NCBI GenBank assembly: GCA_963514005.1
Contig: OY740793.1
Location: 21,142,001 to 21,206,000, forward strand
Direction of reading: 5' to 3'
Origin: Raja brachyura
Taxonomy: Eukaryota
Length of the DNA stretch: 64,000 bases
Part shown: piece by piece, positions 2,691-51,975 of the stretch
How positions within the stretch are numbered: position 1 is the first letter of the stretch
Layout: every line of letters starts with the position of its first letter
The notes under the pieces: generated by a model
The model's database searches: none
What the model saw: only the letters and a program-made list of their open reading frames with translations
What the model was told of the DNA's origin: nothing
Made by a program: the position numbers and the translations under genes

Positions 2691-3537
2691 TAAAAATGAA
2701 CTTATGCAGAAATGCAGAGTGACATAGGTTTTTTTCAGTAAAACCACATGAACATTACAACTGGTGGGAAGGCAAACTAGGAGGTCATATGTGTGCAAAA
2801 GGCATGGAGTATGTGCAAAATACAAGAAACCTTGTCATGAATATTCTGGAAACTAGTTAGTCTTGGAATGATTGTCATGGTAAGCTGGCAAAGAGTAGAA
2901 CACATGGCACAGTGTACAGGTCCCTGAAGAAACGAATCAGGTAAACCTGAGACAAAATGGGAGTGCAGGTATGGAACAGCCCAGCTGGGCTACTGCAAAC
3001 ACAATCAAATCAGAAAACAAGGATTGGAAACAAAAACAGATTGTGCAACACCAGAAACTGCAGATGCTGGAATCTTGAGCAAAATACAAATTGCTGGAGT
3101 AACTCATTGGGTCAGGCAACATCTGTGGAGGGAATGCAGTCGACGTTTCGGGTCGGCTCTTTCTTCATACAGATTATGTGACACTCATTGCATAACCAAA
3201 GGGAATGATGTAATGGTATATATACAACCAAAGAGTGATTGGGAAAGCAACGGTATCCTTACAGCAAATTGGTCGGCTATAAGCCAGGACGTGCTTTGGA
3301 AATACCTCCACCACTTTCTATTGAGGTAGAGCTAAATGTTTGCAGGCAAACACATGGAACATAATCCTGAATTTACACGAAGACAAACCTCTGCAAAATT
3401 ACAATTATTTTTATATTTATGGGCCAGAAGCATGCAATCGAATCTTGTATAGACTCAATGGTATCATGTTCCAGGGTATGTTCCATTGGCTGAAATATCT
3501 GTTCAGCTTCCTTCAAGGTGAGGAATCTTTTGGATCT

Positions 3538-3677
3538 TCTTCTTCTTCTTTCGAGTGGCGTGCACAGCCTAAAGTTGTTGGACAACTTATTCTATTTGAT
3601 CTTCCATTTGTGCACGTCGAGTTGATTGCACTAGTCGAAACAGGGCGGACCACGTGAAGGTTGCAATCTTTCACCCC
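3538..3677 (-). mobile_element. 140-bp SINE-like retroposon with 5' HDV-like ribozyme, copy 1
   Basis: 11-bp TSD CTTTTGGATCT at 3527-3537 and 3678-3688; (GAA)n tail on -; homologous end to end to 6851-6987. Confidence 0.85.
3625..3677 (-). ncRNA. Minimal HDV-like ribozyme (predicted)
   Basis: Minus strand: P1 GGGGUGA / J1-2 AAG / P2 AUUGCA / P3 ACC / L3 UUCACGU / P3' GGU / P1' CCGCCCU / G / mini-P4 U-UUCG-A / J4-2 CUAG / P2' UGCAAU. G1.U wobble present; one A.C mismatch at the distal end of P1. Confidence 0.75.
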
Positions 3678-4543
3678 CTTTTGGATCTAAAAGTCATGCA
3701 GTGAAATTAAAACTCCCGTTTGTGGAGAACCTCATCTATTGGGACACTTGTTTAAATCTACTCCACATTCCCTGTTAACATTAATGCCTTGGCTCTTGGA
3801 GCATTATGAGTAAGAAGGTGGATCTTTGAAATATTTTGTCAAGAATTTCTTTCTTTCATGAGTCCATGCATTCTTTTTTCCTCAAATTTTCCTCTAAGCA
3901 GCAAGATATGTCCTAACTCACTCAGCAAACCAACTTCCTTTTATACACTAGGTCCCGACTAAACTAGCAAAAGTTTAGACTTAACTAGAAAATTTCAAAT
4001 AGCAGAGACCCTTCCCTTGGCTCTTCCCACCTCCAGAATGTATCCATTAAGAAGCAGGGGGAGTTTTCTTTAATGCGTAATGATTAATCATTGTTCATTA
4101 AAGGTACAAGGAAAAAACAGGTGATCCCAAGAGTATTCCAGTTTTGAACATTTCTAAAATAAATTTGAAGCGAAAATCCAGAAGGAATCAGCCTTCCTGA
4201 CTCCTCTGACAATGTACCTAATCAGCAAGAAATCTATGATTCGCTTACCTTCCAGCCAGCTTTGTATTTCTTTCAAATTTAACACCCAAAAAGGATTCTA
4301 AATAAGTTTTCCATTCTTAACATCATTAGAATAAATAGCTAAGATCATTCATGTCTCACCTTACCATGTAAAAGGTAAAACTGGAAAATTCATAATAAAA
4401 AAGAAGCATTTTTAAGTATCTTGCATGAAAAACATACTTCAGATTTCTGGATGGAGCTGCAATAAAGGGTCAAGTGGATCTTGGGAACAGAGGAGACGAT
4501 ATTGTAAGAGCCAGAACTCGACGCCACAAGATTTTTAGCCTTA

Positions 4544-5174
4544 AGCCCCTGTCCCACTTGGCCAATTTTTTCGGCCACTACAGGCGTCTAGATTGTCGCC
4601 ACATGGTCGCGGGATGATGCCTGTATGGTTGTGAGTAGTCTCCTCAAGTCGCCTAAAGAGACATAATGTTTTTCTGGTCGCCGCTGGATTTTGAAATATT
4701 CAAAATTTTCGGCGACTGTGGGCTTGACGTAGCTTGTTGTAGGTGCTGTCGTAGGTTGGCGGCCAGATGGCCCAGTTTGTCGCCAGATGACGTTAGTTGT
4801 CGCCTGGTGCTGACTTTGGTGAATTCCATTGGGACTACCTACGTCAACCTATGTCAACCTACGTCAACCGGCGACAGGTACCAGTGACTGAATTGTCTTC
4901 AGTTGTCACCGACAGGGTTGTTGCTTGTCGTAGCTTGTCGCGGGTAGATGTAGGTTGACTTTGGTTGTCGCCTGTGTGGTCGTAGGTTGTCGTTGGAGTG
5001 GTCGTTGGTGGAAGTCCTAATGGGTCGCCAGTTGTCGGTAGCTTGCCATAGCTTGATGTTGATAGGTGGTAGGTTGTCGTAGCTTGTCATGGGGGGGGTT
5101 TAGTCACCGCTTTTTCGGTGACCTGCTACGACTGTGAGAGTCGCTGAAAAAATTGCCTAAGTGGAACAGGTCCT
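4544..5174. mobile_element. PIF/Harbinger-type MITE
   Basis: TIRs AGCCCCTGTCCCACT ... AGTGGAACAGGTCCT; TTA TSD (4541-43, 5175-77); GTCGTAG-rich interior; reverse-orientation homologue of 44783-45414. Confidence 0.85.
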
Positions 5175-5303
5175 TTACAGTTTTGGTGGGCACCACCCTA
5201 ATAAGCTGCACATTGACACTGGGAAGTGTAATATTTAAATATAGGATCTACAGGATGCCAAATAAGTAATGGCAAGTAACTTAAATATAATGCATCATAT
5301 GAT

Positions 5304-5565
5304 GGGCAGCACGGTGGTGCAGCAGTATGGGTGCAGTCTGTATGGAGTTTGTACGTTCTCCCCATGACCACTTGGGTTTTCTCTGAGAACTTTGGTTTCC
5401 TCCCACACTCCAAAGACGCACAGGTATGTAGGTAAATTGGCTTGGTAAATGTAAAAATTGTCCCTAGTGTGTGTAGGATAATCTTAATATGCAGGGATCG
5501 TTGGGCGGCGCGGACCCGGTGAGCCAAAGTGCCTGTTTCCGCTCGGTATCTCTAAACTAAATTAA
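5304..5565 (+). mobile_element. HE1/V-SINE-like tRNA-derived SINE (head partly deleted)
   Basis: GGCAGCACGGTGGTGCAGC head; V-domain GGAGTTTGTACGTTCTCCCC..GGTTTCCTCCCACACTCCAAAGAC; tail GCCTGTTTCC..TATCTCTAAACTAA. Confidence 0.8.
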
Positions 5566-5796
5566 TCTAGAGTCCAGAACTTTACATGATTAAATAAAGG
5601 CATTACAACTAAACCAAAAATTGAGAAGAGGCTTCCAATATACCTAAGGCTGAGCATACAAAAGATAACCATTACTGGAACACATTGGGACCATAAAGTG
5701 GAAAGTTAGGATATTTAAATAGAAAATGGCAGGCAAATGCAGATTACCATGGATTTTTTTTAATATGTGACACAAAATGCAAGAATAATTCAGAGG

Positions 5797-5928
5797 GTCA
5801 CGCAGCATCAAGGGGTATGGGGAGAAGGCAGGCATGGGTTACTGATTGTGGATGATCAGCCATGATCACAATGAATGGCGGTGCAGGCTTGAAGGGCCAA
5901 ATGGCCTCCTCCTGCACCTATTTTCTAT
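5797..5928 (+). mobile_element. CR1 3' end
   Basis: GGGGTATGGGGAGAAGGCAGG..GATCAGCCATGATC..GAAGGGCCAAATGGCCTCCTCCTGCACCTAT. Confidence 0.8.
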
Positions 5929-6420
5929 CTCTGGAGAATGTGGATTGGTGGCGTTTCAGGTTGGGAACCTTCTTCAGACTGATTGTAGGTGGAGGCTAAG
6001 GGGGTGAAAAAAGCTGGGAGTAAACAGAGGCAGCTCAAAGGGGGGGGAGGGGATTCATACGCAGATGGAAGAAGGCCAGAGATGTAAACAAAAAGATGAG
6101 ACAAGGATAGAAGAGGTACAAATTGTGAAGCCAGTGGAAGGAATATATGTGGAAGGGGAGGAGGAGGGGAAGCTTATCTATTGAAGCTACCTGCTCTCTT
6201 CAATCAGCCCTACTTGGACATGTCCCCATTTCTCCCCTTTCAGCTTTCTCCTCGCCACCCCTGTCCCACCACCACAATGTCTCACGAATGGTACCGACCC
6301 GAAATGTCACTTATCCCTGTTCTCCGGAGATGCTGCCCGACCACTGAGTGACTCCGCACTTTGCGTCTTTTTTTGTAAACCAGTGTCCAGTTGTTTTTTG
6401 TAAACAGTTCCTTGTTTCTC
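5929..6420. mobile_element. Penelope pLTR fragments in inverted arrangement
   Basis: CCTTCTTCAGACTGA (-) at ~5970 and GACCCGAAATGTCAC..GAGATGCTGCC (+) at ~6300. Confidence 0.7.
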
Positions 6421-6850
6421 CACGGCTTTAATAAAAATAACCATCATTGTTGAAGAAAGAGCGAGCATTTGAGGTTGAATTAATTTTGGAAGATTAAAGT
6501 TACAGCGGAAGATATAAATAAATATCATATCAATTGTTCTTTGCAAATTATGGTGTCACTGAGAAATATGGGAGGAACTGGAAGGATGGAGGTAGCTAAC
6601 TGTAACAAAATAATTTTCTGCAAAGAAATAAATAAGAAATTGGCCTCTGATGACATACACATTTGGCTGTTAAAGAAAATATGTTAGGGGCTAATAGAGG
6701 CTGCAGTTAATTTTTCAATACTGCCTCACTATCTAAATGAGGGATGAAACTCTCTAATCCAGCACTCTTTGGACCCAACCAGTGCAGGACCACAGTAAAT
6801 GCTGGAACACAGAAATTATTCCTGATCGTCCTCCACTGAGCAGGAGATCT

Positions 6851-6903
6851 GGGGTGGGAGATTGTAACCTTCACATGGTCCACCCTGTTTCAACAAATGC
6901 AAT
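6851..6903 (+). ncRNA. Minimal HDV-like ribozyme (predicted)
   Basis: P1 GGGGUGG(6851-57)/CCACCCU(6880-86) with G1.U; P2 AUUGUA(6861-66)/UGCAAU(6898-6903); P3 ACC/GGU; L3 UUCACAU; putative catalytic C at 6894 in J4/2 CAAA. Confidence 0.75.
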
Positions 6904-6987
6904 CAACCTGGCGTGCACAAACAGAAGATCAAACAGAATAAGTTGTCTTACAACTTTTGGCTGTGCACACCATACGCAAGAAGAAGA
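6851..6987 (+). mobile_element. 137-bp SINE-like retroposon with 5' HDV-like ribozyme, copy 2
   Basis: 12-bp TSD AGCAGGAGATCT at 6839-6850 and 6988-6999; (GAA)n tail; inserted into a LINE 3' fragment. Confidence 0.85.
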
Positions 6988-9645
6988 AGCAGGAGATCTG
7001 TTCTTTACACACTGGTCAACCTGAGGAGTGCCTTAAACAACCGACTGGTTCCACGAAGATGCAATACAGAATGTCACAGGGAATCCTTCTTCCCTGTGGC
7101 TATCAAAATGTACATCTCCTTCCCCTTCTGTCGTGGGGTAGACTGACTCCCCTTCCCCCCCACCCTTCCCTCCTTAATCTTTGCACATCCCAATCCTTTT
7201 CACTCGTCACTTTAATTTCATGTTTCCTGCATCTTGTGTTTTATGACTATTAGCAGATCAATTTCCCTCCTGGGATAAATAAAGTTCTATCAAATTGCAT
7301 TGTGTCGACACTCCACGGATTACGTGAATATTATTTTCCTGGGAACTGTTTGTAACCCAAAGTTTCTGTTAAATCGTAAAGGATTGTCAGCTGAAATTGC
7401 TGTTGGGTGATATCACAATAGTTGCAGTGGTAGGTTAATTAGGTACAGGTTAATACAGATCTTCATTAATTTGAGATCCTAATTAGATCTTTGTTAAAAT
7501 TTGCTAATTGTTACAGATCATTACGAGAGATTTAAATCATACCAGAACATGGCAGTTGGCAGGCAACAAATTCCAAGGCAGAGTTTCAGTCTGCATTGCC
7601 ATCATTCTGCTGAGTAACTGATACAACAGCCCTCCTCAAGAAAGATGGAAATTATAAACAGAGTAATTATGGATTAATTTGTGGCACATTTCAAGGACTG
7701 ATTTCAAGTCATTCTGCCTTATCTAATTCATATCAATTCCCTGCATTTACTACATTTTTACACCTATTTTTCACTTCTTGTGATTTGGCTTGAAGCGTTC
7801 ACCTGGAAAGATCAGTGACCTTAGATTATTTACGTTGAAATTCAGTGACATCAATAGGATTCGAGTAGTGAATGGAAAAGCAGAATCACTTGGTGGTGCA
7901 GGCATGAAACAGCATGGGAACCCATGATGGGGATTCTCAGGAGGCTGTAGTTGGGCCACTGTAAAGCTGAAGGTCTAATTGCAGATATCTTCCCTCTCAG
8001 GGCCTGAGAGCCCAGATCCGCCTACTTCCCACATCAGGAGGTTGTGCTTCACTAGGCAGTCAGTGATATTTTTATACAATGAATTACAGCCTACTGTCCC
8101 AGCTGACCATGCATTCCCTGCAGCAGTGAAAATTACTGTGATTCGTGTTTCATTGATCTTGAGTGCTCACCAGATGTATTAGATGTTGGCAGTCCTATCA
8201 GTCAGTCTCTGCATCAGCCTGCAGTAGCACTACAGGCCTCCCCAAGTTCAAGCTATGATAGACTGTGACTGTGCATCCAGCACCCCCTACACCCCCCCCC
8301 CACCCCCACCCACACACTTAACCAGATGTCATCCAGAGTGCCTGCGCGTCATTACATCAGACACGCTTGGCGCACCGACAGTCTGGAGTGCACAGCTCCA
8401 CCAGCGGTAAGTAAAACGCCCGCAGGTAAGTGTTTTAAACGTTCTGCGGTTTACTAGGTCCCGTAAAGCTGGTTACAGGAGCCAGCAGGGACACTTCCAA
8501 AGGGAAAAAATATTAACAGAGAAAATAAGGCGAGTGTGTCACCTATAAAGTAAAATTTACCCGTGTGGCTGCGGTCAGCGGGTGTACGCCAGCTTTGAGA
8601 CGCCGACTTCAGAGCCGCCGGCAGTTCAGGCAGCGGCAGCAATTCCGGTGCTTTACAGCACTGAGGCCACTCCTGTCGGGAGGCAGGCCAAGAGTACATT
8701 GTCCAGGCCTGTCAACTCTGATGAGTGAGGCCAGAAAGACTTTTTCCCTTCTAAAAATAAAGGTTGGGGACGGTTGGACAACGTGGAACAACTCATGGAT
8801 AAAATGATCAACCGGGAGGTGTTCCAGCCAGGATTTTATACCCCAGGGTCCCCAGCAGCTTTCAGCAACCTCTAGCAGAGGTCCGTATTACAAAAGAGCT
8901 GTACACGTATATGAAATATAATATGCCTATGAGTCTGCATGGGGACCCATAACAGCAGCGCCTTTTTAAAGGCTGCATGATACCTCCCGTGAGCATGAGC
9001 CGGGAGAGCCAGGGCAGTATGAATCTGACCCTGAGGTTTGGTGTCACTGCTTATGTGCATACATCAAAGCACATGAGCTATGCTCCGGATGTGGCCAGCA
9101 ATTTTGCCATACCGGCGGGAACTGGTGAAGCCATGGATGACAATCTGGCCAGCAATTTAATTATATGGCCTCTCACCAGCTCCAGGACTCCATAATGGAG
9201 GAAACATCGCAAGAGATATCAGACACCTGTTAACTTTGCATCGCTCTAAAGGGGCGCATCATGAGGGCGCATGAGTTAAGGCTGCAGAAAGTCCTAAAAA
9301 CTGGTTGGAGCAGGAATAATGGTGTTTGGGCAAATGGTACAAGGGCACCACTATCAAAACACAGCAGGCTATGGACCCTGCTGTGTAATGCCCATTTTGA
9401 AAATTAATTATTCACAAAATAGCCAGCAAGCCTACGCTCAACCCACGGTTCACAGCTTTGTGCAGATCCTCTATTATCCAGGAAAAGACCTGGGCGATGA
9501 GGCAAAAACAATCGGCCTCATTAAAACTCATCCTGAGACCAGGATGCCACCTCAAAAACCATACCCTTTCAGAACGGGAAGGGGTAATTGAACTAGAGAC
9601 GATGGTGCAGGTCAAGGACCAAGCCGGGCGACCCCAGCTACATGT

Positions 9646-9731
9646 ATCGCTCTTCGGGGTTTTGGCTGAGATCAAGTGTAGCATATGTTCTTATCAGTTT
9701 AATATCTGATACGTCCCTTATCTAGGGACCA
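9646..9731 (+). pseudogene. RNU2: U2 snRNA 5' fragment (3'-truncated copy) inside DIRS
   Basis: ATCGCTCTTCGGGGTTTTGGCTGAGATCAAGTGTAGCATATGTTCTTATCAGTTTAATATCTGATACGTCCCTTATCTAGGGAC starts at U2 nt 1. 64/71 match to recalled human U2, including a 31-nt exact run (9686-9716). Stem IIb GTCCCT/AGGGAC intact; no Sm site or 3' stems. Confidence 0.9.
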
Positions 9732-9849
9732 AAACATTGGCACGCTCCAATGCACACCCCAAACAGGGCTAGGGGACCAAGGAATCCAGCAACCATGAAG
9801 GCACAAGTACTGGACTAGTCCAGGATGTATCCTCTAGAGGTCAGTCACC

Positions 9850-18792: not shown

Positions 18793-19790
18793 AAACATAG
18801 AAACATAGAAACATAGAAATTAGGTGCAGGAGTAGACCATTCGGCCCTTCGAGCCTGCACCGCCATTCAATATGATCATGGCTGATCATCCAACTCAGTA
18901 TCCCGTACCTGCCTTCTCTCCATACCCTCTGATCCCCTTAGCCACAAGGGCCACATCTAACTCCCTCTTAAATATAGCCAATGAACTGGCCTCAACTACC
19001 CTCTGTGGCAGAGAGTTCCAGAGACCCACCACTCTGTGTGTGAAAAAAGTCCTTCTCATCTCGATTTCCCCCTTATCCTTAAGCTGTGACCCCTTGTCCT
19101 GGACCTCCCCAACATCGGGACCAATCTTCCTGCATCTAGCCTGTCCAACCCCTTAAGAATTTTGTAAGTTTCTATAAGATCCCCTCTCAATCTCCTAAAT
19201 TCTAGAGAGTATAAACTGAGTCTATCCAGTCTTTCATCATAAGACAGTCCTGACATCCCAGGAATCAGTCTGGTGAACCTTCTCTGCATTCCCTCTATGG
19301 CAATAATGTCCTTCCTCAGATTTGGAGACCAGAACTGTACGCAATACTCCAGGTGTGGTCTCACCAAGACCCTATACATCTGAAGTAGAACCTCCCTGCT
19401 CCTATACTCAAATCCTTTTGCTATGGAAGCTAACATACCAATCGCTTTCTTCACTGCCTGCTGCACCTGCATGCCTACTTTCAATGACTGGTGTACCATG
19501 ACACCCAGGTCGCGCTGCATCTCCTCTTTTCCTAATCGGCCACCATTTAGATAATAGTCTGCTTTCCTGTTTTTGCCACCAAAGTGGATAACCTCACATT
19601 TATCCACATTATACTGCATCTGCCAAACATTTGCCCACTCACCCAGCCTATCCAAGTCACCTTGCAATCTCCTAGCATCCTCCTCACAGCTAACACTGCC
19701 CCTAGCTTAGTGTCATCCGCAAACTTGGAGATATTGCCTTCAATTCCCTCATCCAGATCATTAATGTATAGTGTAAATAGCTGGGATCTA
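18793..19790 (-). mobile_element. CR1 LINE 3' fragment
   Basis: RT C-terminus (FADDTKLG; [13 protein letters not shown]; RTRGHSL); (ATGTTTCT)n tail. Confidence 0.92.
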
Positions 19791-22700
19791 TTCAAAAACT
19801 CAAGAAGATATGATTTTCTATACAGCCGTCCTCTGCTATCTGTAATTCACTGAATTGGTTGCAGAACAACTCTATTCTGACAGTCCAATCCTAATGTGCT
19901 AACATTCTAAATCTTATCTCCAAATGTTACCCTCTTTTCCTAATATTCCATTCAGTTGCCACTCATTATACCAAGCATTAGAACCAGGACTAAATCTTTA
20001 TGCAATATGAACCTAATCTCTAACCTGTTACTTTACCTCAGTTGCAGTAGCTTCACCCAATGTGGGAAATAGGGCAGAGGGAACTAGGCTTCCACTCCTG
20101 GTCACCAACCGATGATTCCCCACACTACTCATGTGTGGTCATTTGATCAGATGAAGATAAAGCTTAACCCCAATGCCCCCTCCTTCGTCAAATATATTCA
20201 CAGTTTGGATACTTGTCCAATTTTGGCAGGACAACCGTAGTTCTCTGGTTCTCAAACCAGAGAACTATATCTCAGCATGAACCAAGAGAGGAGTTGGGAA
20301 GGACTAAATCTCCTACAAAACTTGGCATGGAAAGTATTTGTGAAAATATTGTTCAACGCTGTCCCCTTTTTTCTGTATACAGATTTCATACAAACTTGAT
20401 TCTTAGAGTTAATTCTGATAGAACAATTTCTATGACTGTTCATTGTTAATGTATTTTCTGTTTTGCTGTGTTGCTATCCTCTGTGGATATCTTGCTCTTG
20501 TCATTTATTATAAATACTTTAATTGCTCTCCCTCTGGATGATAGTATTTTTTGGGTGGATCTATCTATTCACCAACCTTTCCAACCATTGCTTACATCTG
20601 TCCTCCATCCTCCAGGATTAACTTTCATGATATTCATTTTCACAACATATTTAGGAGATTTGGCAATATCCCAGTTTGATACCTTTCAATGTATCAATAG
20701 CACACAAACTATTTTGCCTAGTTCTGTTTCTTAATTGTTTTCAGGAATTTGTTTAACAAGAAAAAGAGTTATTTCCATAATTTTAATCTTTCTACTAATA
20801 TACCAGCACTGAAATCTTGGTATGCTTGGTACAATTTGCATTGGAGCTTTCTTAAGAAGTTTGGTTGCAAACTTTTTTTTATTAATCCCACTATTCAAAA
20901 GTTTATTATTACCTTGCCACAGCACAAGGACACAAAAGGCTGCAATTTCAACACACACAGCAAGTCCAGTTAATATATTTATGAACGGTACGCCGTGTAA
21001 CCCAAGAGAGTGTTTTTACTGAGTAGTGTGATCATTCCATTAGGAATGCAGCAACGGTTGTGATCTCCTTTCCTGTTGTACTTTGCTTGTGACTGGAGGG
21101 AGGATGTCTGTTTCTTAATGTTTCTCTTGTTCCTTTATGTGCCTTTGACACTGTTAAACCCGGCTTCTAAATCATTTAATTAATGTCAAAGATTAGGTGC
21201 TGACTGTTTAATACTGAACCTCTTTATTCAAGCTGAATGTTGAATGATGCATGATTCATTTGTTAATGCTCCTCGAGGTTAGCAGTCAGTGAATTACCAC
21301 CAGTAACACAGAGCAAATTCTGCAATATCACAGGCCAAAACAAATGGATTCATTATGCACCAGTTTGGATAAAAGAACAATTGACTCAAAATCCATTCCC
21401 GTTGGTAGCACTAAATGCACTACGTAATAACAGCTCTGCGGTTTACTCAGCTTACAAAATTATTTCCCAGGGAACCAAAAATAAATTGCTTGAGAAACCT
21501 GGTGGGCCAAGCATCAACTGTGGAGGCAAAAGGGATGAGTAAACACTTTGGGTTAATACTCTGCATTAAAACCGTACAGGGCCTTGAGCCGAAACACCAA
21601 TACACTTTTTTGCCGGCACAGATGCTGCTTAACCTGCTGAGTTCTTCATGTGTTCTGTTTTTTGTTCCACATTTCAACATCTGCAGTTTCTTTTGTCTTC
21701 TTTCTCATTGAGCTTGTGGTACATTCAGTAGTAACAGTGGGAGGTGAATTTAACTTCTCCCTGTCACTTCCTATAGCAAACTCCTTCTTTCCCTAATACT
21801 AATTGTGCTTCATCTCCTACCCCACAGCCCCACCACTAGTGACTGTACTTTCTGTAGTCTTGGATCCATATTTGGAATTACCTCCATTAGCCTATCTGCC
21901 TCTCAACATCTCTTCTTCTTTAAGATCTTCCTTAAAATGCATCTCTTTGACCAAGCATCTGATGAACCTTCCAAATAGTCCTGCTTTTCCTCATGATCTA
22001 ATGTTCAATTACTCCTCTATGAAGAACTATGGGGTTTTCTTTTGTTAAAGATGTTGCGTCAATACAATTTCTTGGTATGATATTCCAAACTAAGCATAGT
22101 CATGAAGAGAGGCAGGATTTACAAGCATCTCAAATATGATGTGATCGTACAATAATTCTAGTTGAAAATAGCTACTCAGAACATTTTACTCCCTCTACCC
22201 ACATAAATCATCCATATTAATAAATGGTTATTTTTGACAAATTCCACAAATATCACCTCTTTGGAATTGATTCCTTCCGTGACCGTACTTCATGTGAAGA
22301 ACCTCCTGACCACAATCTACACTTATGTTTTATTAACCAGCATCTCTTCTACTCGAGCAACAATTTTTAAATCACATGTCTCGCAATATTTTGTATTAAA
22401 AGAATTCTGTTCATTGCTTACCTTTTACATGCCTTTGGCTATCATATAAAGCCACCTTCTTCAGAATGTCTTCATTGCTAGGTTGTTTGATATCGGAGAT
22501 CAGCTTCAATGTTTGCATAGACCTCAAGGATTACATATGTTTCAGTAACCAAAAGCAAACTTGTCTCCAACAAATAGGGGAATTATACATTCAATGACAA
22601 TACCACCATGATCAACTCCACCTCCTTTGGGTCACCATTGAACAGAAGCACAACAAGATTAACCTCTCTTGTTCCACTGCTGGAGCTACTAGAGTGGCTT

Positions 22701-34589: not shown

Positions 34590-37500
34590 AATGGGAAGAA
34601 GAGGAAGGAGGTTCTCCAACGTGAGTTCAGAGAGTTAGGAAGAAGACCGAAAAGCAGGACTTCTAGGGTGGTTATATCTGGATCGCTTCCAGTACCTCGT
34701 GCTAGTGAGGACAGGAACAGGGAGATAGGGGATCGGAATGTGTGGCTGAGGGGCTGGAGCAGGAAGCAAGAATTTAAATTTACAAACCACTGGGATCTCT
34801 TCTGGGGTAGGTGGTGACTTGTGTAAAAGGGACGGGTTACACCTTAACTGGAGGGGGACTGACATTCTGGCAGGCAGGTTTGCTAGGGCTACACGTGTGG
34901 GTTTAAACTAAATAGTGGGGGGAGGGATTGACAAATTCGGAGTATAAAGATGGAGTTGAAGGGGAAGTGAGTACAGGAAAAATTAGAAAGATTCTCGAAT
35001 TAATGGGAAGGAAATTTCGAGAAGGGATAAAAGAGTAAGGTCAGGGCTAATTGCGAGCGGTGCGAGGGGGGACGTGAATACGGAGGTCAAAGTGTTGTAT
35101 ATGAATGCGCGAAGTTGGACGAACTTGAGGTTCAGTTAGAAATTGGCAAGTATGATGTTGTGCGAATTAACAGAGACATGGCTGCAAGAGGGCCAGGGCT
35201 GGGAACCGAATATTCAAGAGTATACCTCCTATCTAAAAGACAGACAGGTGGGCAGAGGGGGTGGGGTACGTTTGTTAGTGAGGAATGAAATTCAGTCCCT
35301 TGCAAGGGGTGACATTGAAACAGGAGATGTGGAGTCAGTATGGATAGAACTAAGGAATTGTAAGGGTAGAAAGACTCTAGTGGGACTTATCTACAGGCCC
35401 CCAAACAGTATCCTGGACATAGGGTGCAAGTTGAATCAGGAGTTAAAATTGGCATGTAGCAAAAGTATTGCTGTGGTTGTTATGGAAGATTTCAACATAC
35501 AGGTAGACTGGGAAAATCAGGTTGGTACTGGACCCCAAGAAAGGGACTTTGTAGAGTGCCTTTGTGATGGATTCTTAGAGCAGCTTATATTGGAGCCTAC
35601 CAGGAAGAAGGCAATTCTGGATTTAGTGTTATATAATGAACCGGATTTGAAAAAGGAATTTGAGGTTAATGAGCCATTAGGAGGTAGTGACCATAACATA
35701 GTCAGGTTTAATCTATAATTGGAGAGGGAGAAGGGTAGATCGGAGGTGTCAGTGTTACAATTGAATAAAGGGGACTAAGGGGCCATGAGGGAGGAGCTGG
35801 CCAAAGTTGACTGGAACGATACTCTAGCAGGGATGACAGTGGAACAACAATGGCAGGTATTTCTAGGAATAATACAGAAGGTGCAGGATCAGTTCATTCC
35901 TAGGAGAAAGAAAGATTCCAAGGGGAATAAGGGGCGATCGTGGCAGACAAGGGACATCAGGCTAGGTATAAAAATAAAAGAGAAGAAGTACAACATAGCA
36001 AAGATGAGCGGGAAGCAAGAGGATTGGGTAATGTTTAAAGAGCAACAGAAGATAACTAAAAAGACAATACGGGGAGAAAAGACGAGGTATGAAGGTAAGC
36101 TAGCCAAAAAAGGAGGATCGTAAATGCTTCTTTAGGTATGAGAAGAGGAAAAAAATAGTTAAGACCAAAGTTGGACCCTTGAAGACCGAAAAAGGTGAAT
36201 TTATTATGGGGAACAAGGAAATGACAGATGAGTTGAACAGGTACTATGGATCCGTCTTCACTAAGGAGGACACAAACAATCTTCCTGATATAGTAGTGGC
36301 CAGAGGATCTGGGGTGATGGAGGAACTGAAGGAAATCCATATTAGGCAGGAAATGTTGTTGGGTAGACTAATGGCTGATAAATCCCCAGGGCCTGATAGT
36401 CTGCACCCCAGGGTACTTAAGGAAATGGCTCTAGAAATCGTGGATGCATTGGTAATAATTTTCCAATGTTCTATAGATGCAGGATCAGTTCCTGTGGATT
36501 GGATGGTAGCTAATGTTATCCCACTTTTTAAGAAAGGCGGGAGAGTGAAAACAGGGAATTATAGACCAGTTAGCCTGACATTGGTGGTGGGGAAGATGCT
36601 GGGGTCAATTATAAAAGATCAAATAGCCACACATTTGGATTTACGAAGGGGAAATCATGCTTGACTAATCTTCTGGAATTTTTTGAGGATGTAACTAGGA
36701 AAATGAACAAGGGAGATCCGGTGGATGTACCTGGACTTTCAGAAACCATTTTTGATAAGGTCCCACATAGGAGATTAGTGGGCAAAATTACGGCACATGG
36801 TATTTTGGGTAGAGTGCTGACATGGATAGAAAATTGGTTGGCAGACAGGAAACAAAGAGTAGGGATTAACGGGTCCCTTTCAGAATGACAGGCAGTGACT
36901 AGTGGGATACTGCAAGGCTCTGTGCTGGGACCGCAGCTATTTACAATATACATCAATGATTTGGATGAAGGGATTCAAAGTAACATTAGCAAACTTGCAG
37001 ATGACACAAAGCTGGGTGGCAGTCTGAACTGTGAGGAGGCTGCTATGAGAATGCAGGGTGACTTGGACAGGTTGGGGGAATGGGCAGATGCATGGCAGAT
37101 GAAGTTTAATGTGGATAAATGTGAGATTAACCACTTTGGTATCAAAAACAGGAAGGCAGATTACTATGTAAATGTCGTTGTTGGGAAGTACAACGGGATC
37201 TGGGGGTCCTTGTTCATCAGTCTATGAAAGTAAGCATGCAGGTACAGCAGGCAGTGAAGAAAGCAAATGGCATGTTGGCCTTTCTAACAAGAGGAGTCGA
37301 GTATAGGAGCAAAGAGGTAATTCTGCAGTTGTACAGGGCCCTAATGAGACCACACGTGGCGTATTGTGTGTAGTTTTAGTCCCCTAATTTGAGGAAGGAC
37401 ATTCTTTCTATTGAGGGAGTGCAGCATACAAGGTTAACAAGGTATTAGGTTTACAAGGTTAATTCCCGGGATGGCGGGACTGTCATATGCTGCGAGAATG

Positions 37501-37927
37501 GAGCGGCTGGGCTTGTACACTCTGGAGTTTAGAAGGATGAGAGGGAATCTTATTGAAACATATAAGATGGATAAGGGTTTGGACACGCTAGAGGCAGGAA
37601 ACATGTATCCGATGTTGGGGGAGTCCAGAACCAGGGGCCACAGTTTAAAAATAATGGGTAAGCCATTTAGAACAGAGATGAGGAAACACTTTTTCTCACA
37701 GAGAGTTGTGAGTCTGTGGAATTCTCTGCCTCAGAGGGTGTTGGAGGCCGGTTCTGTGGATACTTTCAAGAAAGAGCTAGATAGGGCTCTTAAAGATAGC
37801 GGAGTCAGGGGATATGGGGGGAAGGCAGGTATGGAGTACTGATTGGGGATGATCAGCCATGATCTCATTGAATGGCAGTGCTGGCTCAAAGGGCCGAATG
37901 GCCTACTCCTGCGCCTATTGTCTATTG
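34590..37927 (+). mobile_element. CR1 LINE, long degenerate copy (end of ORF1 esterase, APE, RT, 3' UTR)
   Basis: ORF1 SGNH-like VVISGSLPVP..WLRGW..NHWDLFWGR; APE TETWL, IYRPPN, LGGSDHN; RT KSPGPD, NYRPVSLT, QGSVLGP, ADDTKLGG; tail CTATTGTCTATTG; many stops and frameshifts. Confidence 0.93.
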
Positions 37928-42787: not shown

Positions 42788-44401
42788 AAGAAACAAAGAA
42801 ACATCGAAAACAGGTGCAGGAGTAGGCCATTTAGCCCTTCAAACCAGCACCGCCATTCAATATGATCATGGTTGATCATCTAAAATCAGTACCCCATTCC
42901 TGCTTTTTCCCTATATCCCTTGATTCCATTGGAACTAAGAGCTAACTCTTGCTTGAAAATATCCAGTGAATTGGCCTCCACTGCCTTCTAGGGCAGAGAA
43001 TTTCACAGATTCACAACTCTGGGTGAAAACGTTTTTCTTCATCTCAGTCCTAAATGGCCCACCCCTTATTCTTAAATGGTGACCTCTGGTTCAGAACTCC
43101 CCCAAAACCGGGAACATTTTTCCTGCATCGAGCCTGTCCAATCCTTTAAGAATTTAGTATGTTTCTATAAGATCTCCTCTCAACCTTCTAAATTCCGCCA
43201 TCCCAATAATTAACCTGGTGAACATACGCTGCACTCCATCAATAGCAATAATGCCATTCCTCAAATTTGGAGACCAAAATTGCACACAATACTCCAGGTG
43301 TGGTCTCACCAGGGCCCTGCACTACTGCAGTAGGACCTCCTTGCTCCTAAACTCAAATCCTCTCGCAATAAAGCCCAACATGCCATTAGCTTTCTTCACT
43401 GCCTGCTGTACTTGCACGCTTACTTTCAGTGACTTATGTACAAGCACACACAAATCTCGATGCACTTCCCCTTTTCCTAATCTGACACCATTCAGATAAT
43501 AATCCGCCTTCCTGTTCTTGCCACCAGTGATAACCTCACATTTATCCACATTAAACTACATCTGCCATACATCCTGCCCACTCACCCAACCGATCCAAGT
43601 CACCCTGCACCTCATAGCATCCTCCTTACAGCTCACACTGCCACTCAGCTTTGTGTCATCTGTAAACTTGGAGATGTCACATTTAATTCCCTCGTGTAAA
43701 TCGTTAATATATATTGTAAATAACTGGGTTCCCAGCACCGAGCCTTGCGGCACCCCACTAATCATTGCCTGCCGTTCAGAAAAGGACCCATTAATTCTGA
43801 TTCTTTTCTTCCTGTCTGCCAATTAGTTCTCTATCCATGGCAATTCCCTACCCACAATAGCATGTGCTCTCATTTTGCACACTAATCTCCTGTGTGGGAC
43901 ATTATCAAAGCAGATCCACCACATCTACTGGCTCTTCCTTATCCATTCTACTTGCTACATCCTAATAAAATTCCAGTAGATTAGTTAAGCATGATTTCCC
44001 CTCAACTCAAGCATCTTCCCCACTACCGATGTAAGGTTAACTGGTCTATAATTCCCCACTTTCTCTCTCCCTCGTTTCTTAAAAAGTGGAGTTACATTGG
44101 CTACCCTCCAGTCCACAGGAACTGATCCAGAGTCGAGAGAATATTCGAAAATGATCACCAATGCATCCACAATTTCTAGGGCCACCTCCTTGAGTACTCT
44201 AGGATGCAGACTATCAGGTCCTGGGGATTTATCTGCCTTCAATCCCAACAGTTTACCCAACACCATTTCCTGACTAATGTGGATTCCCTTCAGTTCCTCC
44301 CTCCCACTAGATCCTCGGTCCCCTGGTATTTCTGGGAAATTGTGTTTTCCTTAGTGAAGACAGAACCGAAGTACTAATTTAACTGTTCTGCCATTTCCTT
44401 G
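42788..44401 (-). mobile_element. CR1 LINE RT/3' fragment
   Basis: ORFs 43322-43549, 43556-43822 and 43985-44266 with CR1 RT motifs; 3' UTR at 42800-42920. Confidence 0.9.
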
Positions 44402-44782
44402 TTTCAATTGCTAGTACAAATGTTTCGATGTAGGGGTTAGTATATTTTTCTGTATGTTTCTATAAGAATAAAAAGCATTTGTCTCAGCAAAGCGAGCCAC
44501 TATATAAAGAATGCTTCTTTAAAAATGTAAGTCATTTTTCAAGTTAAATAGCTGTAAATAAGTGTTTGTTAGTTGATATGACTGACTTTTCTCCAATGTG
44601 ATCGAGCTTTGATAAGTAAGACAGATCAAAGCAAATGAACTTCCAGAAAATAAATTTCAGGATAAATTGCTGACAGCAATCTATATACATTATTGATAAA
44701 TATTGAGTTCTTATAGAGAAGTCCAATTGATTTGCACTTCAAAACCTCACTAATCACAAATTCAACACAGCAAAAATAGTAA

Positions 44783-45414
44783 AGGGCCTGTCCCACTGAG
44801 GCAATTTTTTAGGCGACTGCCATAGTCGACCACCCTACGACAATGTCTACGACAATGTCGACGACAAGCTACAACAACCTACCACCTAGTCGACGTCAAG
44901 CTATGGCAAGCTACCGACAACCGGCGACCCATTAGGATGTCCACCTACGACAACCTGCGACCACACAGGCGACAACCTACGACAGCCAAAGTCAACCTAC
45001 GTCCATCCGCAACAAGCTATGACAAGCAACGACCTTGTCGGCGACAACTGAAGACAACTGAAGGTGGTTGACGTAGGTTGACGTAGGTAGTCGCCAATGG
45101 AATTCACTGCGGTCAGCACCGGCGATAACCTACGTTACCTGGCGACAACCTACGTCATCCTGGTGACCTACTACCACCACACCTATGTCACGAGATTACA
45201 AGCTACGATCCATGGGGTCAAAACAAATGTCGCCGCTAATGTTGAAAAATTAGCGGCGACCAGAATGACGTTATGACTTGTTGTGAAACTGAGGAAACTA
45301 CTCACGACCATGCAGGCAACATCCCAGCAACCACAAGCGAACATGTGGCGACTATTTGGTGACCGCATACCCTTCTGTAGTCGCATAAAAGATCGCCTAA
45401 GTGGGACGGGCCCT
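44783..45414. mobile_element. PIF/Harbinger-type MITE
   Basis: TIRs AGGGCCTGTCCCACT ... AGTGGGACGGGCCCT; TAA TSD. The empty site GTAAGGGTCTC is seen in the duplicate at ~48421. Confidence 0.92.
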
Positions 45415-47038
45415 TAAGGGTCTCTGTGGAATTAGTTTGCCGATAGTTCACAGCGGTAACTTTTTAGTTATAATCAGTCTAAATGTGATTCAGGGATACT
45501 GCAGAATGTGTCAACAAAATTGGTTTGGACAATATCTGTTTTCTATCAAACAAATTATTTTTACCTTGTTATGATGGAATTATATCAAAATTAATTGACA
45601 TTTTCAATCAGTAACAAGGAATCCATTTTTATTCATTTCTTAAAAATTGGGATTTTCAATTTATCTAGCTTATTAAGAATTTCACATGTCTTTGATGCTG
45701 CCAGAACCAGATAACTGATGCTGAACTCCAAGGTGTCAATAGATGTATTCCCACAGAATATTATTAATCACACCCTGAATTTAGCTAACCTCAATCCCAA
45801 CTCTGCAATTTGACACTGCTTTCAGTCTCTCATAGTCATCAGTGAAATTTACAGTGATCACCTTCTGAAAACATTTTAAAGCATTTATACAAATAATATT
45901 CAAGCATATCCTGGTAAGGAAAGAATACTAGACACTCAAAGAAGCTACCTTTCAGATAAAATATTAAATCAGGAATAGGTCTACTGTCTCAGAAGTACAT
46001 GTTGATTCTAAGGCACAATTCAGTAAAGACATAAGAAGTTCTCAAACTCTCAAACTGGGCAAATCAACAGATCACCTTTCCAGATTCATTAGTTTTATCC
46101 TTCATTACATTGTGAGACAAACTCACTGTTGTGCCTTTAACTTATTTCATGACTATATTTAGCAATTCTTTGCTCCAAAAACGTTTTGCTATATCTTTCT
46201 TTCCCTTTCGAATGTGGGATGCTCCCTTATTGATCGAGAATGGTTTAAATGAGTTCATCTCTAATCATAAAAAAGAAACAAGCACATTGAATACCATACT
46301 CACCAGACAGCTGTCTCTTGATAAGAGAAGTGATGTAACGTCGTGTCCTAGAAGCCGTCACTGATAATACTGTAATTCCATAAAACAGATATCATGTCCA
46401 CATTGAATTAAAAGCAAATTTTGCTGGCTGGCAGTTAATTAAGCCCACAGCAAAGTGAACCTCAAGTATGTTGTCCAGATCTATATTGCGTCCAACAGAA
46501 ACAACTTTCCAAAGAGTAAAAAAAAGAGGAATTAGTGATTTGCAGTTTGCTAGTTGATGTAAAAATAGTTGGACTCCAGCCAATTAATTTAGAGGAAGGA
46601 GAAAAAGTGTTCTGCACATCAAAACTACAAGCTGGGCTCTTCTGAAGTTTTATTACGTAAGTTTCAATTTTAATCTAAGGCTGGTCAATGGCTCTTCCAA
46701 TCAAAAGCTGAGGTTCAGAAATTATGACTTCTTCTATCTGCACCGAGTAAAGTTTCACACAAAGGTCAGCTTCACAGAAATACAGCAATGACAAACCAGA
46801 GCAAAATGCATAATCCAATTTACCTACTAACAAAGGAAACTGTCAGTGTCAGGGAGGCAAAGCCCAGAAATTTGATTACATAACATGGTTTCTTGCAGCA
46901 TTATGTGCAAAGTAAACAACTTTTCTTCAAGTGTAACATTACTGCAATAATTGTTGTCAGACACCCACATAATGAAGTCACTCCCCATGCAAAACGTACC
47001 GAGAACAATGACGGGGAAAATTCCCCATTTTTGGAGCA

Positions 47039-48069
47039 CATTTTTCCTGCATCTAGCCTGTCCAATACTTTAAGAATGTTATATGTTTCTATAAGATCTC
47101 CTCTCACCCTTCTAAATTCCAGTGAATGCACACCCAGTCGACCCATTCTTTCACCATATGTCAGTCCCGCCATCACGGGAATTAACCTGGTGAACCTACT
47201 CCCTCAATAGCAATAATGTCCTTCCTCAAATTCCCTCGTCTAAATCGTTAATATATATTGTATATATATGTGGCACCCCACTAGTCATTGCCTGTCATTC
47301 TGAAAAGGACCCGTTAATTCCTACTCTTTACTTCCTGTCTGCCAACCAGTTCTCTATCCAAGGAAGACACAAAATGCTGGAGTAACTCAGTGGGACAGGC
47401 AGCATCTCTGGAGAGGAGAGAAGATCTCTATCCATATCGATACCCTACCCCCAATACCATGTGCTCTAATTTTGCACATTAATCTCTTGTGTGGGACCTT
47501 GTCAATGTTTTTTTGAAAGTCCAGATACACCACATCCACTGGTTTATCCATTCTACTTGTTACATCCTCAAAAAATTCCAGAAGATTAATCAAGCATGAT
47601 TTCCCCATTCATAAATCCATACTGACTTTGACCGGCCTTGTCACTGCCTTCCAAATGCACTGCTATAACATCTTTAACAATCAACTCAAGTCTCTTCCAC
47701 ACTACCGATGTAAGGCTAACTGATCTATAATTTCCCGTTTTCTCTCTCCCTCCTTTTTTAAAAAGTGGAGTTACATTGGCTGCCCTCCAGTCCAGAGTTG
47801 AGAGAAGATTCAAAAATGATCACTAATGCATCCACGATTTCTAGGGTCACCTTTTGAGTACTCTGGGATGCAGACCATCAGGCCCAGGGCATTTATATAC
47901 CTTCAGTCCCAACAGTTTACCAACACCATTTCCTGACTAATGTGGATTCCCTTCAGTTCCTCCCTACCACTAGATCGTCGGTCCCTTAGTGTTTATGGGA
48001 AATTGTTTGTGTTTTCTTTAGTGAAGACAGAAGCAAAAGTACTAAGTTAACTGTTCTGCCATTTCCTTG
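47039..48069 (-). mobile_element. CR1 fragment (duplicate of 43115-44401, with different internal deletions)
   Basis: RT motifs; same 5' junction GCCATTTCCTTGTTTCAATTG as at ~44390. Confidence 0.88.
47361..47424 (-). mobile_element. Short Penelope pLTR insertion specific to duplicate copy B
   Basis: TSD TCTCTATCCA at 47351-60 and 47425-34; absent at the paralogous site ~43830. Confidence 0.75.
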
Positions 48070-50899
48070 TTTCAATTGTTAGTACAAATGTTAAATGTTT
48101 ATCTGTATGTTCTATAAGAAATAGTCTGTCTTAGCAAAGGAAGCCACTATAAAGAATGCTTCTTTAAAAATGTGTCATTTTCAAGTTAAATAGCTGTAAA
48201 TAATTGTTTGTTAGTTGATATTACTGACTTTTCTCTAATGTGAACGAGCTTTGATAAGTAATACAGATCAAAGCAAAGGAACTTCCAGAAAATAAATTTC
48301 AGGATACATTACTGACAGCAATCTATATAAATTATTGATAAATGTTGAGTTCTTATACAGAATTCCAATTGATTTGCACTTCAAAACCTCACTAATCACA
48401 AATTCACCAAGCAAAAAACAGTAAGGGTCTCTGTGGAATTAGTTTGGCGATAGTTTACAGCAGTAACTTTTTAGTTATAATCAGTCGAAATGTGATTCAG
48501 GGAAACTGCTGAATGTGTCAACAAAACTGGTTTGGGCATTTGCTGTTTTCTATCAAACATATTATTTTTACCTTGTTATGAAGGAATTACATTGAAATTA
48601 ATTGAAATTTTCAAACAGCAACAAGGAAACTGTAACATGGAAGCCATTTGTATTCATTCTTAAATATTGAGATTTTCAATTCGACTGGCTTATAAGAATT
48701 TCACATGTCTTTGATGCTGCCAGAGCCAGATAATTGATGCTGAACCCCAATGTGTCCACAGATATATTCCCACAGAATATTATCAATCACACCCTGAGTT
48801 TAGCTAACCTCAATCCCAACTCAGCAATTTGACACTGCTTTTGGTCTCTCATTCGGTGATCACCTTCTGAAAATGTTTTAAAGCATTGATATAAATAATA
48901 TTCAAGCACATCAGAGTAAGGAGAGAATACTACACCATCAAAGAAGCTACCTTTCTGATAAAATGATAAATAATGAATAGGTCTACAGTCTCAGAAGTGC
49001 ATGTCTGAATCAAAGGCACAATTTAATGAAGACCAAATAAGTTTTCAAACTCTCAAAATGGGCAAATCAACATGTCACCCTTCCAGATTAATTGGTCTTT
49101 TATCACTTTACATTGTGAAAAAACTCACTGTTGTGCCTTTAACTCATTTCATGACCACATTTAGCAGTAATTCTTTGCTCCAAAAAGTTTTGTAATGTCT
49201 TTCTTTCCCTTTCGTATGTGGGATGCTCACTTATTTGGTTGAGATGGTTTCAATTGGTTCCATACTAATCATTAAAAAAGGAGCAAGCACAGTGAATACC
49301 ATACTCACCAGGCAGCTTTGTTTCTTGATAGAGAAGTGAAATAACTGCGAGTCTTAGAAGCCTTCACTGATAATACTGTAATTCCATAAAACAGATATCA
49401 TGTCCACACTGAATAAGAAGCAAATTGTGCTGGCTGGCTGTTAATTAGTCTCACAGCAGAGTGAACCTGAAGTATGTTGTCCAGATCTAAATTGAACCCA
49501 ACAGAAGCAACTTTCAAAAGAGTAAATAAAGAGGAAATAGCGATTTGCAGTTTGCTAGTTGATGTAATAATAGTTGGACTTCAGCCAATTACTTTAGAGG
49601 AAGGAGATAAAGTGTTCTGCACACCAAAACTACAAGCTGAGCTCCTTCTGAAGTTTTATTACTTGCTTTAATTTCAATCTAAGGCTGGTCAATGGCTCTT
49701 CCAATCTAAAACCGAGGTTTAGAAATTATGGCATATTCTATCTGCACCGAGTAAAGTTTCACACTAAGGTCAGATTCACAGAAATGACAAATCAAAGCAA
49801 AATGCATAATCCAATTTACCTACTAACAAAGGAAACTGTCAGTGTCATGAAGGTAGTAGAGAATTGCTTGGCAATGCCCCGAAATTTGATCACATAACAT
49901 GGTTTCTTTCAGCATTATGTGCAAAGTAAACAATTTTTCCTCAAGTGTAACATTAGTGGAATAATTGAACTTGCGTAGATGATATATTTCCCCTGTCAAA
50001 CGGCCACATAACAAAGTCACTCCCCATGCAAAACGTACCTAGAACAACGACTGGGAAAATTCCCCATTTTTGGGGATTGTCAACCTGAATGGATTTCATT
50101 AGCGCTGCTATTTCTTCAGCAGCACCATGCAAAATAATCGCTTGGGCAAGTCAGATTTATCTACCCCTCCCCATTCAGAAAACCTATCTCCACCTAACTC
50201 AGCGATTAATAGGTTCCAGTTAATATAAGCCTTGACTCCTCAAAGACCTGAACGTCTACTCCAACCCATAACCGTTGATTGCAGCCACCCACCCCCAACT
50301 TACTGACCTTCAGCCATTATAGCTGTGAGGGAATTCATTGATAGCTAACTGAGCAATCACATCCCCTCGACCCCATCCCCACATGTGCCTGCCAACAAAC
50401 ACCAACTGTATCGCAAAGACAACTTTAAAAAAGTTAAAGGATATGGAATGAATGCAGGCAAGAGGGATTAGGAAAAGATAGGCATTATGAGCAGCATGCA
50501 TGTGTTGGTCCAAAGGCCTTATTTATATGCCGTATGTCCCACTGAGATGTTATGATTCTGCTGTTACCCTCCCTCCATGCTGATCAGATGGCTACATGGA
50601 ATGCAGAGTCAAAACTACTGAACTGGATTCTTATTTGATATTTTCAACCACTGCTCACCAGGAGTTTTGCATCACCCTGACCCCTCTTTTGAATTCTCAC
50701 CACCCTCTTCCAGCCTCTCTCTCTAGAGCTCCATCACACAGCCCCTGCCTTGGATTTGCATCACATTTCATACTTCCTCTTCTTTCATTATCTGACACCC
50801 TTTTGCCTCTTTTTCATCTCTGGCCTTTATCATTTTCTCCACATATCTGACACCCTCCCCCTATCATCCTACCACATGCCTTTCTTTTCAAATTTGCTA

Positions 50900-51975
50900 A
50901 CCATGGCTGACAAGGGAAGTCAAGAACAGTGTAAAAATAAAAGAGAAGTATAACAGCAAAGATGAGCAGAAATCCAGACTTTTAAAGAGCAACAGAAGAT
51001 AACTAAAAAGGCAATACAGGGAGAAAGGATGAGGTGCAAAGGTCAGCTAGCCAAGAAAATAAAAGATGATAGGTAAAGCTTCTTTAGGTATGTGAAGAGG
51101 AAAAGATTAGTTAAGACAAATGTGTGTTCCTTGAAGACAGAAACAGGTGAATTTATTATGGGGAACAAGGAAATGGCAGACGAGTTGAACAGGTACTTTG
51201 AATCTGTGTTCACAAAGGAAGTCACAAACAATCTCCAAATGTACTAGTGGCCAGAGGATCTGGGGTGACGAACTGAAGGAAATTCATATTAGGCAGGTGT
51301 TGGGACTGAAGGCTGGTAAATCAGCCAGGGCCTGATGGTCTGCATGGATATTGACATGGATAGAAAATTGGTTGGCAGACAGGAAACAAAGAGTCTCTTT
51401 AATGGGTCCCTTTCAGAATGGCAGGCGTGTGGTGTACTGCAAAGCTCTGTGCTGGGACCGCAGCTATTTACAATACACATTAATGATTTAGATGAAGGGA
51501 TTAAGTGTAACATTAGCAAATTTGCAGACGACACAAAGCTGGGTGGCAGTGTGAACTGTGAGGAGGATGCTATGAGGTTTCAGGGTGACTTGGACAGGTT
51601 GGGTGAGTGGGCAGATGCATGGCAGATGCATAACGCGGATAAATGTGAGGTTATCCACTTTGGTAGCAAGAACAGGAAGGCAGATTATTATCTGAATGGT
51701 GTCAAGTTAGGAAAAGGGGGAGTACAACGAGATCTGGGTGTCCTTGTTCATCAGTCACTGAAAGTAAGCATGCAGTTACAGCAGGCAGTGAAGAAAGCTA
51801 CTGACATGCTGGCCTTCATAACAAGAGGAGTTAAGTATAGGAGCAAAGAGTTCCTTTTACAATTGTACTGGGCCCTGGTGAGACCACACCTGGACTATTG
51901 TGTGCAGTTTTGGCCAGCCATGATCACAGAGAATGGTGGTGCTGGCTCAAAGGGCTGAATGGCCTAGTCCTGCAC
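50900..51975 (+). mobile_element. CR1 LINE fragment with internal deletions
   Basis: ORF 51335-51958: QSSVLGPQLF..FADDTKLGG..RPHLDYCVQFW. Confidence 0.88.

Follow-up and report, generated by a model that had tools for sequence, protein, structure and literature searches.

The locus and the question that it raises

The short repeat found on the minus strand at positions 3538..3677 of the window (the whole 64,000-nucleotide stretch of DNA that was analyzed) raises the question of whether its 5' end is a self-cleaving ribozyme of the HDV type, and whether a second copy nearby lends support to such a fold. Our analyses showed that this repeat, referred to as copy 1, is a slightly damaged, independently inserted copy of an abundant retroposon whose 5' end has an HDV-like fold, and that it adds little on its own.

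Copy 1 belongs to subfamily A and consists of a 131-nt bipartite Vingi-type element followed by a (GAA)n tail. Its first base (G1) is at 3677, its tail ends at 3538, and the identical 11-bp target-site duplications that flank it are at 3678..3688 (5' copy) and 3527..3537 (3' copy). From its 5' end onward, copy 1 contains a predicted P4-less HDV-like ribozyme of 54 nt (3624..3677) with the predicted cleavage site 5' of 3677, the remaining LINE-derived 5' UTR (element nt 55–79; 3599..3623), a linker that is not colinear with the LINE (3579..3598), and a LINE-derived 3' end with the last codons and the stop of the LINE ORF (3551..3578). The tail (3538..3550) is common to the LINE. In addition, the two arms of an outer helix are at 3609-3616 (5' arm) and 3559-3566 (3' arm), the 5' arm of an inner hairpin lies within the linker (3582-3588), and a terminal A[CT][AT]CG motif is at 3552-3556, all on the minus strand.

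Copy 2, a member of subfamily B, is on the plus strand at 6851..6987 with its ribozyme at 6851-6904. It is flanked by a 12-bp duplication (6839-6850 and 6988-6999), so that the two copies are on opposite strands with different duplications, as had been noted earlier. In a search within the window, copies 1 and 2 were 84.9% identical over 139 nt (E 7e-41), and no third copy of the element was found in the whole window. The window also contains the 5' half of a U2 snRNA at 9646-9737 (Rfam, 71.6 bits), which has several changes, lacks the 3' half and is probably a pseudogene fragment. Old LINE-like repeats of other families, 70–86% alike, are at 18800-19800, 36200-37900, and 42800-51900.

The predicted ribozyme in the two copies

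Comparisons of sequences strongly support a minimal HDV-like double pseudoknot as the predicted fold of the first 54 nt. P1 is formed by nt 1–7 and 30–36 with G1.U36 as its first pair, P2 by nt 10–16 and 48–54 and P3 by nt 17–19 and 27–29. L3 has 7 nt (20–26), P1.1 is the single pair C22-G37, only six nt are at the place of P4, and J4/2 reads C44-N-A-A. CPEB3 likewise has a P1.1 of one pair, and antigenomic HDV has U as the second base of J4/2. In the HDV ribozyme, the U and CG of L3 are crucial, the base equivalent to position 45 flips out, and the published descriptor fixes the last base of J4/2 as A (PMC6326823).

The ribozymes of copies 1 and 2 differed at eight positions (7, 8, 15, 25, 32, 42, 45, and 47). 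Five of these differences were compatible with the fold, three were damaging and none was two-sided. The differences that the earlier note named were all read correctly: position 5 of P1 is in U5.G32 in copy 1 vs. U5-A32 in copy 2, P2 has C15-G49 in copy 1 vs. U15.G49 in copy 2, the P1 pair A7.C30 is lost in copy 1, and the UUCG loop of copy 1 is closed by U-A (U38-[UUCG]-A43). Its list was incomplete in that A47G of copy 1 (in J4/2) and G25A of copy 2 (in L3) were missed.

Compared with the majority sequence of subfamily A, copy 1 had five differences (G7A, A47G, C72T, C89T, and A124T), of which G7A (3671) and A47G (3631) are lesions in the ribozyme; the catalytic C44 is at 3634. The ribozyme of copy 2 possessed G25A (6875) in L3 and a private C15T (6865). 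Both copies failed the HDV descriptor, copy 1 via A47G and copy 2 via G25A. G7A was also considered as a subfamily mark and rejected, as it was found in only 2 of 72 copies of a position-ordered sample; its frequency among best matches is attributed to ranking bias.

Family size, subfamilies and insertion marks

The source assembly is 2.70 Gb in size. A search for an 18-mer from the 3' end, in which one mismatch was allowed, had 20,226 matches, compared with 1 for the reversed control, and the high-copy family that had been suspected from two copies is thus confirmed. The exact 54-nt head of subfamily A occurred 1,320 times in the genome. The family was sampled at 90 of the first 100 listed places among the 20,226 matches, leaving out two repeats and the final eight places; because all of these places, on contig 1, were exact matches, the sample leans to young copies. 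Among the matches listed, the 90 places comprised 70 full-length copies, 3 nearly so, 12 truncated copies, and 5 LINE ends, so that 70 of the 85 non-LINE copies in this position-ordered sample were of full length. Scaled to all matches, a rough estimate was ~19,000 short elements, ~16,000 of which were of full length. These counts include duplications, because one copy sits in a tandem segmental array, where twelve identical matches were spaced at 7–27 kb (G000:C1:14796042-14951978).

The main subfamilies were A, B, and C, whose mean divergences were 3.3, 7.1, and 5.0%, respectively. Subfamily C was longer by 2 nt, and the rare subfamily D had a different middle. Target-site duplications were found in 47 of 61 copies vs. 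7 of 301 mismatched controls. They ranged from 7 to 13 bp, mostly 11–12 bp, and 39 of the 47 ended at the base preceding G1. For the 62 copies placed in subfamilies A to C, the rates of private change were 2.8% at paired, 3.2% at core and 3.5% at free loop positions, 2.0% in the 3' half and 9.4% at CpG sites. Inserted copies decay neutrally, with similar rates of private change on paired, core, and loop positions.

Several truncated copies (L237, L245, L250, L252, L261, L264, and L292) were broken near nt 75–95 by other repeats, which suggests that this region is a preferred target for them. At L091:1502-1640, a short element flanked by a duplication had inserted into the 5' region of a copy of the partner LINE. 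Near-identical words were also found under seven organism labels in twenty contig-only runs.

The partner LINE

The partner was searched for as copies of the 3' end without the head upstream, of which 100 were listed among 3,559 matches; at least two of the matches listed had coding sequence whose stop codon falls in the shared end. The partner LINE, followed at 42 loci, is ~3.1–3.2 kb long and has a single ORF. Pfam domains for APE and RT were identified and RNase H had no match in the eight stretches scanned. The best homologues were proteins of ~1000 amino acid residues with APE and RT only, the nearest being 69% identical. Moreover, C973, C975, H984, and C989 in the C-terminal part were invariant in 25 homologues and also found in the partner LINE; such a C-x-C...H...C motif is a mark of the Vingi clade and is not known from RTE. 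None of the homologues retrieved had an informative clade name, and no intact ORF was seen in the 42 loci, in which the longest open stretch was 426 amino acid residues. In its layout and domains, the partner LINE fits the description of Vingi as a compact LINE with a single ORF, APE and RT and without RNase H (PMC13708176). It is called Vingi-type here on these features and the motif.

The same ribozyme was at the sense start of 8 of 20 long LINE loci, and the LINE copies share the last ~30 nt of the short element and its tail. Because the ends match, the short element corresponds to LINE nt 1–~79 and the last ~30 nt of the LINE, joined by a linker and followed by (GAA)n. Within the linker are 7-nt stretches in antisense to the LINE 3' end, as well as 8 nt repeated from the LINE 5' UTR. 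The element derives from a Vingi-type LINE of the same genome by deletion of the ORF, and is bipartite and non-autonomous.

At least three further Vingi-type LINE families were found in the genome (L131–L144 and L321–L335), all with (GAA)n tails. Two of them had HDV-like heads with a long P4, in one case with a U-A pair as P1.1. The second LINE family had single internally deleted copies (L329 and L335) without mass expansion, and no high-copy short derivative of it was found (16 matches). Moreover, some 5'-truncated LINE copies were fused to an inverted segment from the LINE 5' end that reached down to nt 1–15. Such inversions were found at 7 of 42 loci of the partner family (L061, L094, L095, L099, L108, L115, and L119), a sample partly seeded by L061, and at 3 of 15 loci of the second family (L326, L328, and L333), next to two ordinary internal inversions. 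[quoted passage not shown]

Conservation of the fold within the family

The majority sequence of the family folds, as predicted, into a nested double pseudoknot of P1, P2, P3, and P1.1 with G1.U as the first pair. The U and CG of L3, the catalytic C and the purine-A end of J4/2 were found in the subfamily majorities and in 28 of 72 copies, and 28 of 72 was also the number of fully intact ribozymes (one copy with an internal inversion was left out). The descriptor matched 47 of 58 best-match loci and 38 of 73 sampled copies, compared with 0 of 5000 shuffles and none in 400 kb of shuffled window. No HDV-type family of Rfam had a match at gathering score in the window, nor at E<=10 in 3000-7500, and the folding energy of the 5' half carried no signal in pseudoknot-free folding (z of 0.37 and 0.68).

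Fourteen positions separate the subfamilies, of which three are in the ribozyme: 8 (in J1/2), 32 (U-A to U.G), and 45. All three changes were tolerated, the chance of avoiding all breaks being ~0.01 as a rough figure, and all pairs, L3, and C44/A46/A47 were kept through every subfamily change. The earlier note held that the second copy supports the fold. This argument fails, because none of the 18 pairs had a two-sided change among 13 distinct family rows including copies 1 and 2, inserted copies decay neutrally and both window copies have core lesions. Its proposed test, that paired positions be more conserved than loops in the family, came out negative, as private changes were no rarer on paired positions than on loops; given the neutral decay of inserted copies, such a within-family test would wrongly reject the fold. 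The conclusion that the fold is real holds all the same, through other Vingi-type lineages, the subfamily changes, and RNA 5' ends.

The same fold in other Vingi-type lineages

A fold of the same kind was identified directly 5' of the ORF in two other LINE families of the genome and in several metagenome relatives. With C at the catalytic site, the descriptor matched 6 of 32 upstream regions in sense and 0 of 32 in antisense; variants with A, G, and U at this site had 2, 3, and 2 sense matches, respectively, which may be at the same loci. A looser descriptor matched 9 of 21 hand-picked regions (12 failed) and 0 of 200 shuffles. The first, strict descriptor allowed only a J4/2 of 4 nt, and later versions were loosened after the data had been seen. 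In 307 kb of metagenome loci the strict version had one match with C and two with U at the catalytic site, and in 94 kb of own-genome loci it had none.

Six lineages (this family and five other Vingi-type ones), 39–67% alike on the 5' strands, were compared in detail. All 108 of their 108 cells were paired, compared with 90 in the best of 20,000 shuffles, a count that is inflated because the lineages were picked for passing the descriptor; their position and sequence diversity are not inflated in this way. Two-sided changes were found at 15 of the 18 pairs, including P1.1. Pair counts were taken from a script, because automatic alignments misplaced P2' or part of P1; the script left out L166 and L153 (close kin of L156) as well as L209 (a duplicate of L208). 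A common small stem-loop was also found between the ribozyme region and the ORF start in the Vingi-type 5' UTRs of L161, L171, L172, and L217 from metagenomes, for which a role in translation start is possible.

The 3' half of the element

The earlier note had regarded the 3' half, with its outer GTGCACA/TGTGCAC helix and inner AAGTTGT/ACAACTT hairpin, as a candidate structure for recognition by RT. Both structures are present. The outer helix joins the LINE 5' UTR to the LINE 3' end with 8 pairs, or 10–11 pairs in subfamilies B and C, and its duplex in the partner LINE was equaled in only 5 of 1000 shuffles. The helix holds for this family alone: pairing between 5' and 3' sequence was not supported as a common feature of Vingi LINEs, as 702 of 1000 shuffles were as good in family 2 and 182 and 50 in family 3. 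The deletion that gave rise to the element may have been favored by this helix. The inner hairpin stems from 7 nt that are antisense to the LINE 3' end. The LINE lacks this hairpin and subfamily D has a different one in its place, so that a role as RT signal is unlikely. A better candidate is the A[CT][AT]CG motif just before the tail, which, although defined post hoc, was found in 23 of 47 Vingi-type ends vs. 1 of 47 controls.

RNA 5' ends and rival explanations

Four raw RNA runs, of each of which 1–5% was read, were mapped to an intact copy of subfamily A. The RNA was from the carrier species (coded organism B), which may differ from the source species; the subfamily marks in its reads had shares resembling those of the source genome. 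In two single-cell runs, 62–69% of the 5'-end reads began exactly at the predicted cleavage base, with a constant 30-nt oligo directly before G1 in 1577 of 2279 and 1324 of 2131 reads. This oligo is presumably the template-switching oligo. G1 ends were read from the join with the oligo, which was still attached to the reads; the program's table of molecule ends was empty. Reads starting at G1 amounted to 75–90 per million in these two runs. The bulk runs had the same join mixed with read-through, many reads continuing into flanking sequence. In addition, RNA reads had A runs after nt 126–129, which may come from priming on the GAA tail. The reads are not independent, and a few loci may dominate them.

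Cleavage rather than initiation is the likely origin of this RNA 5' end, even though template switching does not discriminate between capped and cleaved 5' ends (PMC6280765). We consider it unlikely that an internal Pol II promoter sets the 5' end, as Pr77 does in L1Tc, with the fold inherited and cleavage minor. The Pr77 element has CGTG at +25 to +28 (PMC4748587), and the element has a similarly placed CGTG at 24–27. Within it, C24T and G25A had sense-to-antisense read ratios of 0.45 and 0.50 (0.67–1.41 at ten other CpG sites), a depletion that speaks for the ribozyme but that decay of a promoter would likewise produce. This depletion was twofold, where about fivefold would be expected if each RNA starting at G1 needed an intact core, and reads starting at G1 still contained C24T/G25A copies, as a promoter would allow. 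Against a promoter are the pairs, L3, and C44/A46/A47, which are kept across subfamilies and sequence-divergent lineages, in two of which the CGTG is lacking. Moreover, the majority register had no extra G between the oligo and G1 (a minority could have one), and C44T, at 6.1% in DNA (663/10,808), was apparently below 5% in three of the four RNA runs, a weak difference. The pile-up at G1 is very unlikely to be a library artefact in which the GGG of the oligo invades cDNA at the G run of the element. Strand invasion at sites matching the oligo 3' end is a known artefact (PMC6280765) and the element begins with four G. The GGG of the oligo precedes G1 on top of these (agreement of 0.77–0.80), making seven G where invasion would replace element G, and GGG was upstream of just 4 of 61 genomic copies, both of which argue against invasion. 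The pile-up was also common to two studies that used different versions of the oligo.

An ordinary Pol III SINE with a tRNA head and a chance fit to HDV is extremely improbable. The element is short and abundant with a LINE-like tail and had no Rfam HDV match, as such a SINE would be expected to; against this, no tRNA was found in five loci, no A or B box was found by a simple pattern in two copies, its head is the 5' end of the LINE itself, and its pairs covary across lineages. For copy 1 itself, 17 of 18 pairs, L3, and C44 are kept and the lost pair, 7-30, is at the end of P1, all of which would fit a ribozyme that is still active. We regard such activity as doubtful: A47 was invariant in 72 of 72 sampled copies, was A in all six lineages and is fixed as A in the published descriptor (PMC6326823), which copy 1 failed, and G7A breaks P1. 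It is rather likely that copy 1 is impaired by G7A and A47G together and is a weakened passenger.

Taken as a whole, the explanation that we consider quite probable is that a LINE-derived element is mobilized in trans and that its 5' ribozyme frees unit-length RNA. Element RNA would be made by sense read-through from the host or from a weak promoter of its own, and the ribozyme would cut just 5' of G1 to yield RNA of unit length. The LINE protein would bind the 3' end, most likely at the terminal motif and tail, and would copy the RNA in trans by target-primed reverse transcription, generating an 11–12-bp duplication. Mobilization in trans by this protein is suggested by the common ends, the tail, and the duplications. 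Selection would act on source elements only.

Implications and comparison with known systems

Sites of RNA cleavage may number in the thousands in this genome. More tentatively, with odds that we place somewhat below even, ~6,000 intact ribozymes might cleave transcripts of the host in vivo, setting free an abundant RNA of ~130 nt, and Vingi-type LINEs might generally possess 5' HDV-like ribozymes and a protein that engages both RNA ends, as the 5'-terminal inversions and the 5'-3' helix would suggest. If so, the family would be a genome-wide source of co-transcriptional RNA cleavage. If a third of the copies cut, sense copies inside genes would sever host pre-mRNAs, leading to an orientation bias. 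Vingi-1 has been used in RNA-only gene insertion platforms (PMC13708176), for which the element shows which ~79 and ~30 nt suffice in nature; if the LINE protein does engage both RNA ends, the 131-nt element would mark the natural minimal template for Vingi gene writing.

Vingi has been confirmed in hedgehogs and reptiles (PMC5753468), and the six ribozyme-bearing clades listed in one account do not include it (PMC5786205). The folds described here extend 5' HDV-like ribozymes to Vingi-type LINEs. Among the papers listed by the literature search, none dealt with a ribozyme of Vingi or with the element itself; as the search extended neither to Repbase and Dfam nor to patents, the family may already be catalogued.

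NARTc, RIME, and SIDER are dispersed, short non-coding derivatives that carry the 5' HDV-like ribozyme of a LINE and a duplication of ~12 bp (PMC4035085, PMC6765202). Similar to these elements, which share the Pr77 hallmark of the L1Tc/ingi clade, the element described here has the same plan, a duplication, and a CGTG at the same place. Different from them, its partner has no RNase H, its ribozyme is shorter (54 vs. 77 nt) and lacks the P4 that theirs possesses, and the element of 131 nt is present in ~19,000 copies in an animal genome of 2.7 Gb. The SIDEs of R2 in Drosophila also combine a ribozyme with the 3' end of the autonomous element through internal deletion (PMC3414825); R2, however, is site-specific in rDNA, uses a restriction-like endonuclease and has a large ribozyme, and its SIDEs are rare. 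Similar to the element, the Vingi-1_EE derivatives and SINE2-1_ACar are bipartite derivatives of the 5' and 3' parts of Vingi LINEs (PMC5786205). As for the ribozyme, drz-Mtgn-1 and the theta ribozymes are likewise double pseudoknots without P4 and with short J1/2 and L4 (PMC10879173), but they were described from metagenomes and from phages of the gut, where they lie beside tRNAs, whereas the fold described here is at the head of an animal retroposon. Trypanosomes and the rDNA of Drosophila have provided earlier examples of the architecture; what is added here is a P4-less ribozyme in the size class of the phage and metagenome forms, at ~16,000 full-length copies and with RNA reads that begin at the predicted cleavage site.
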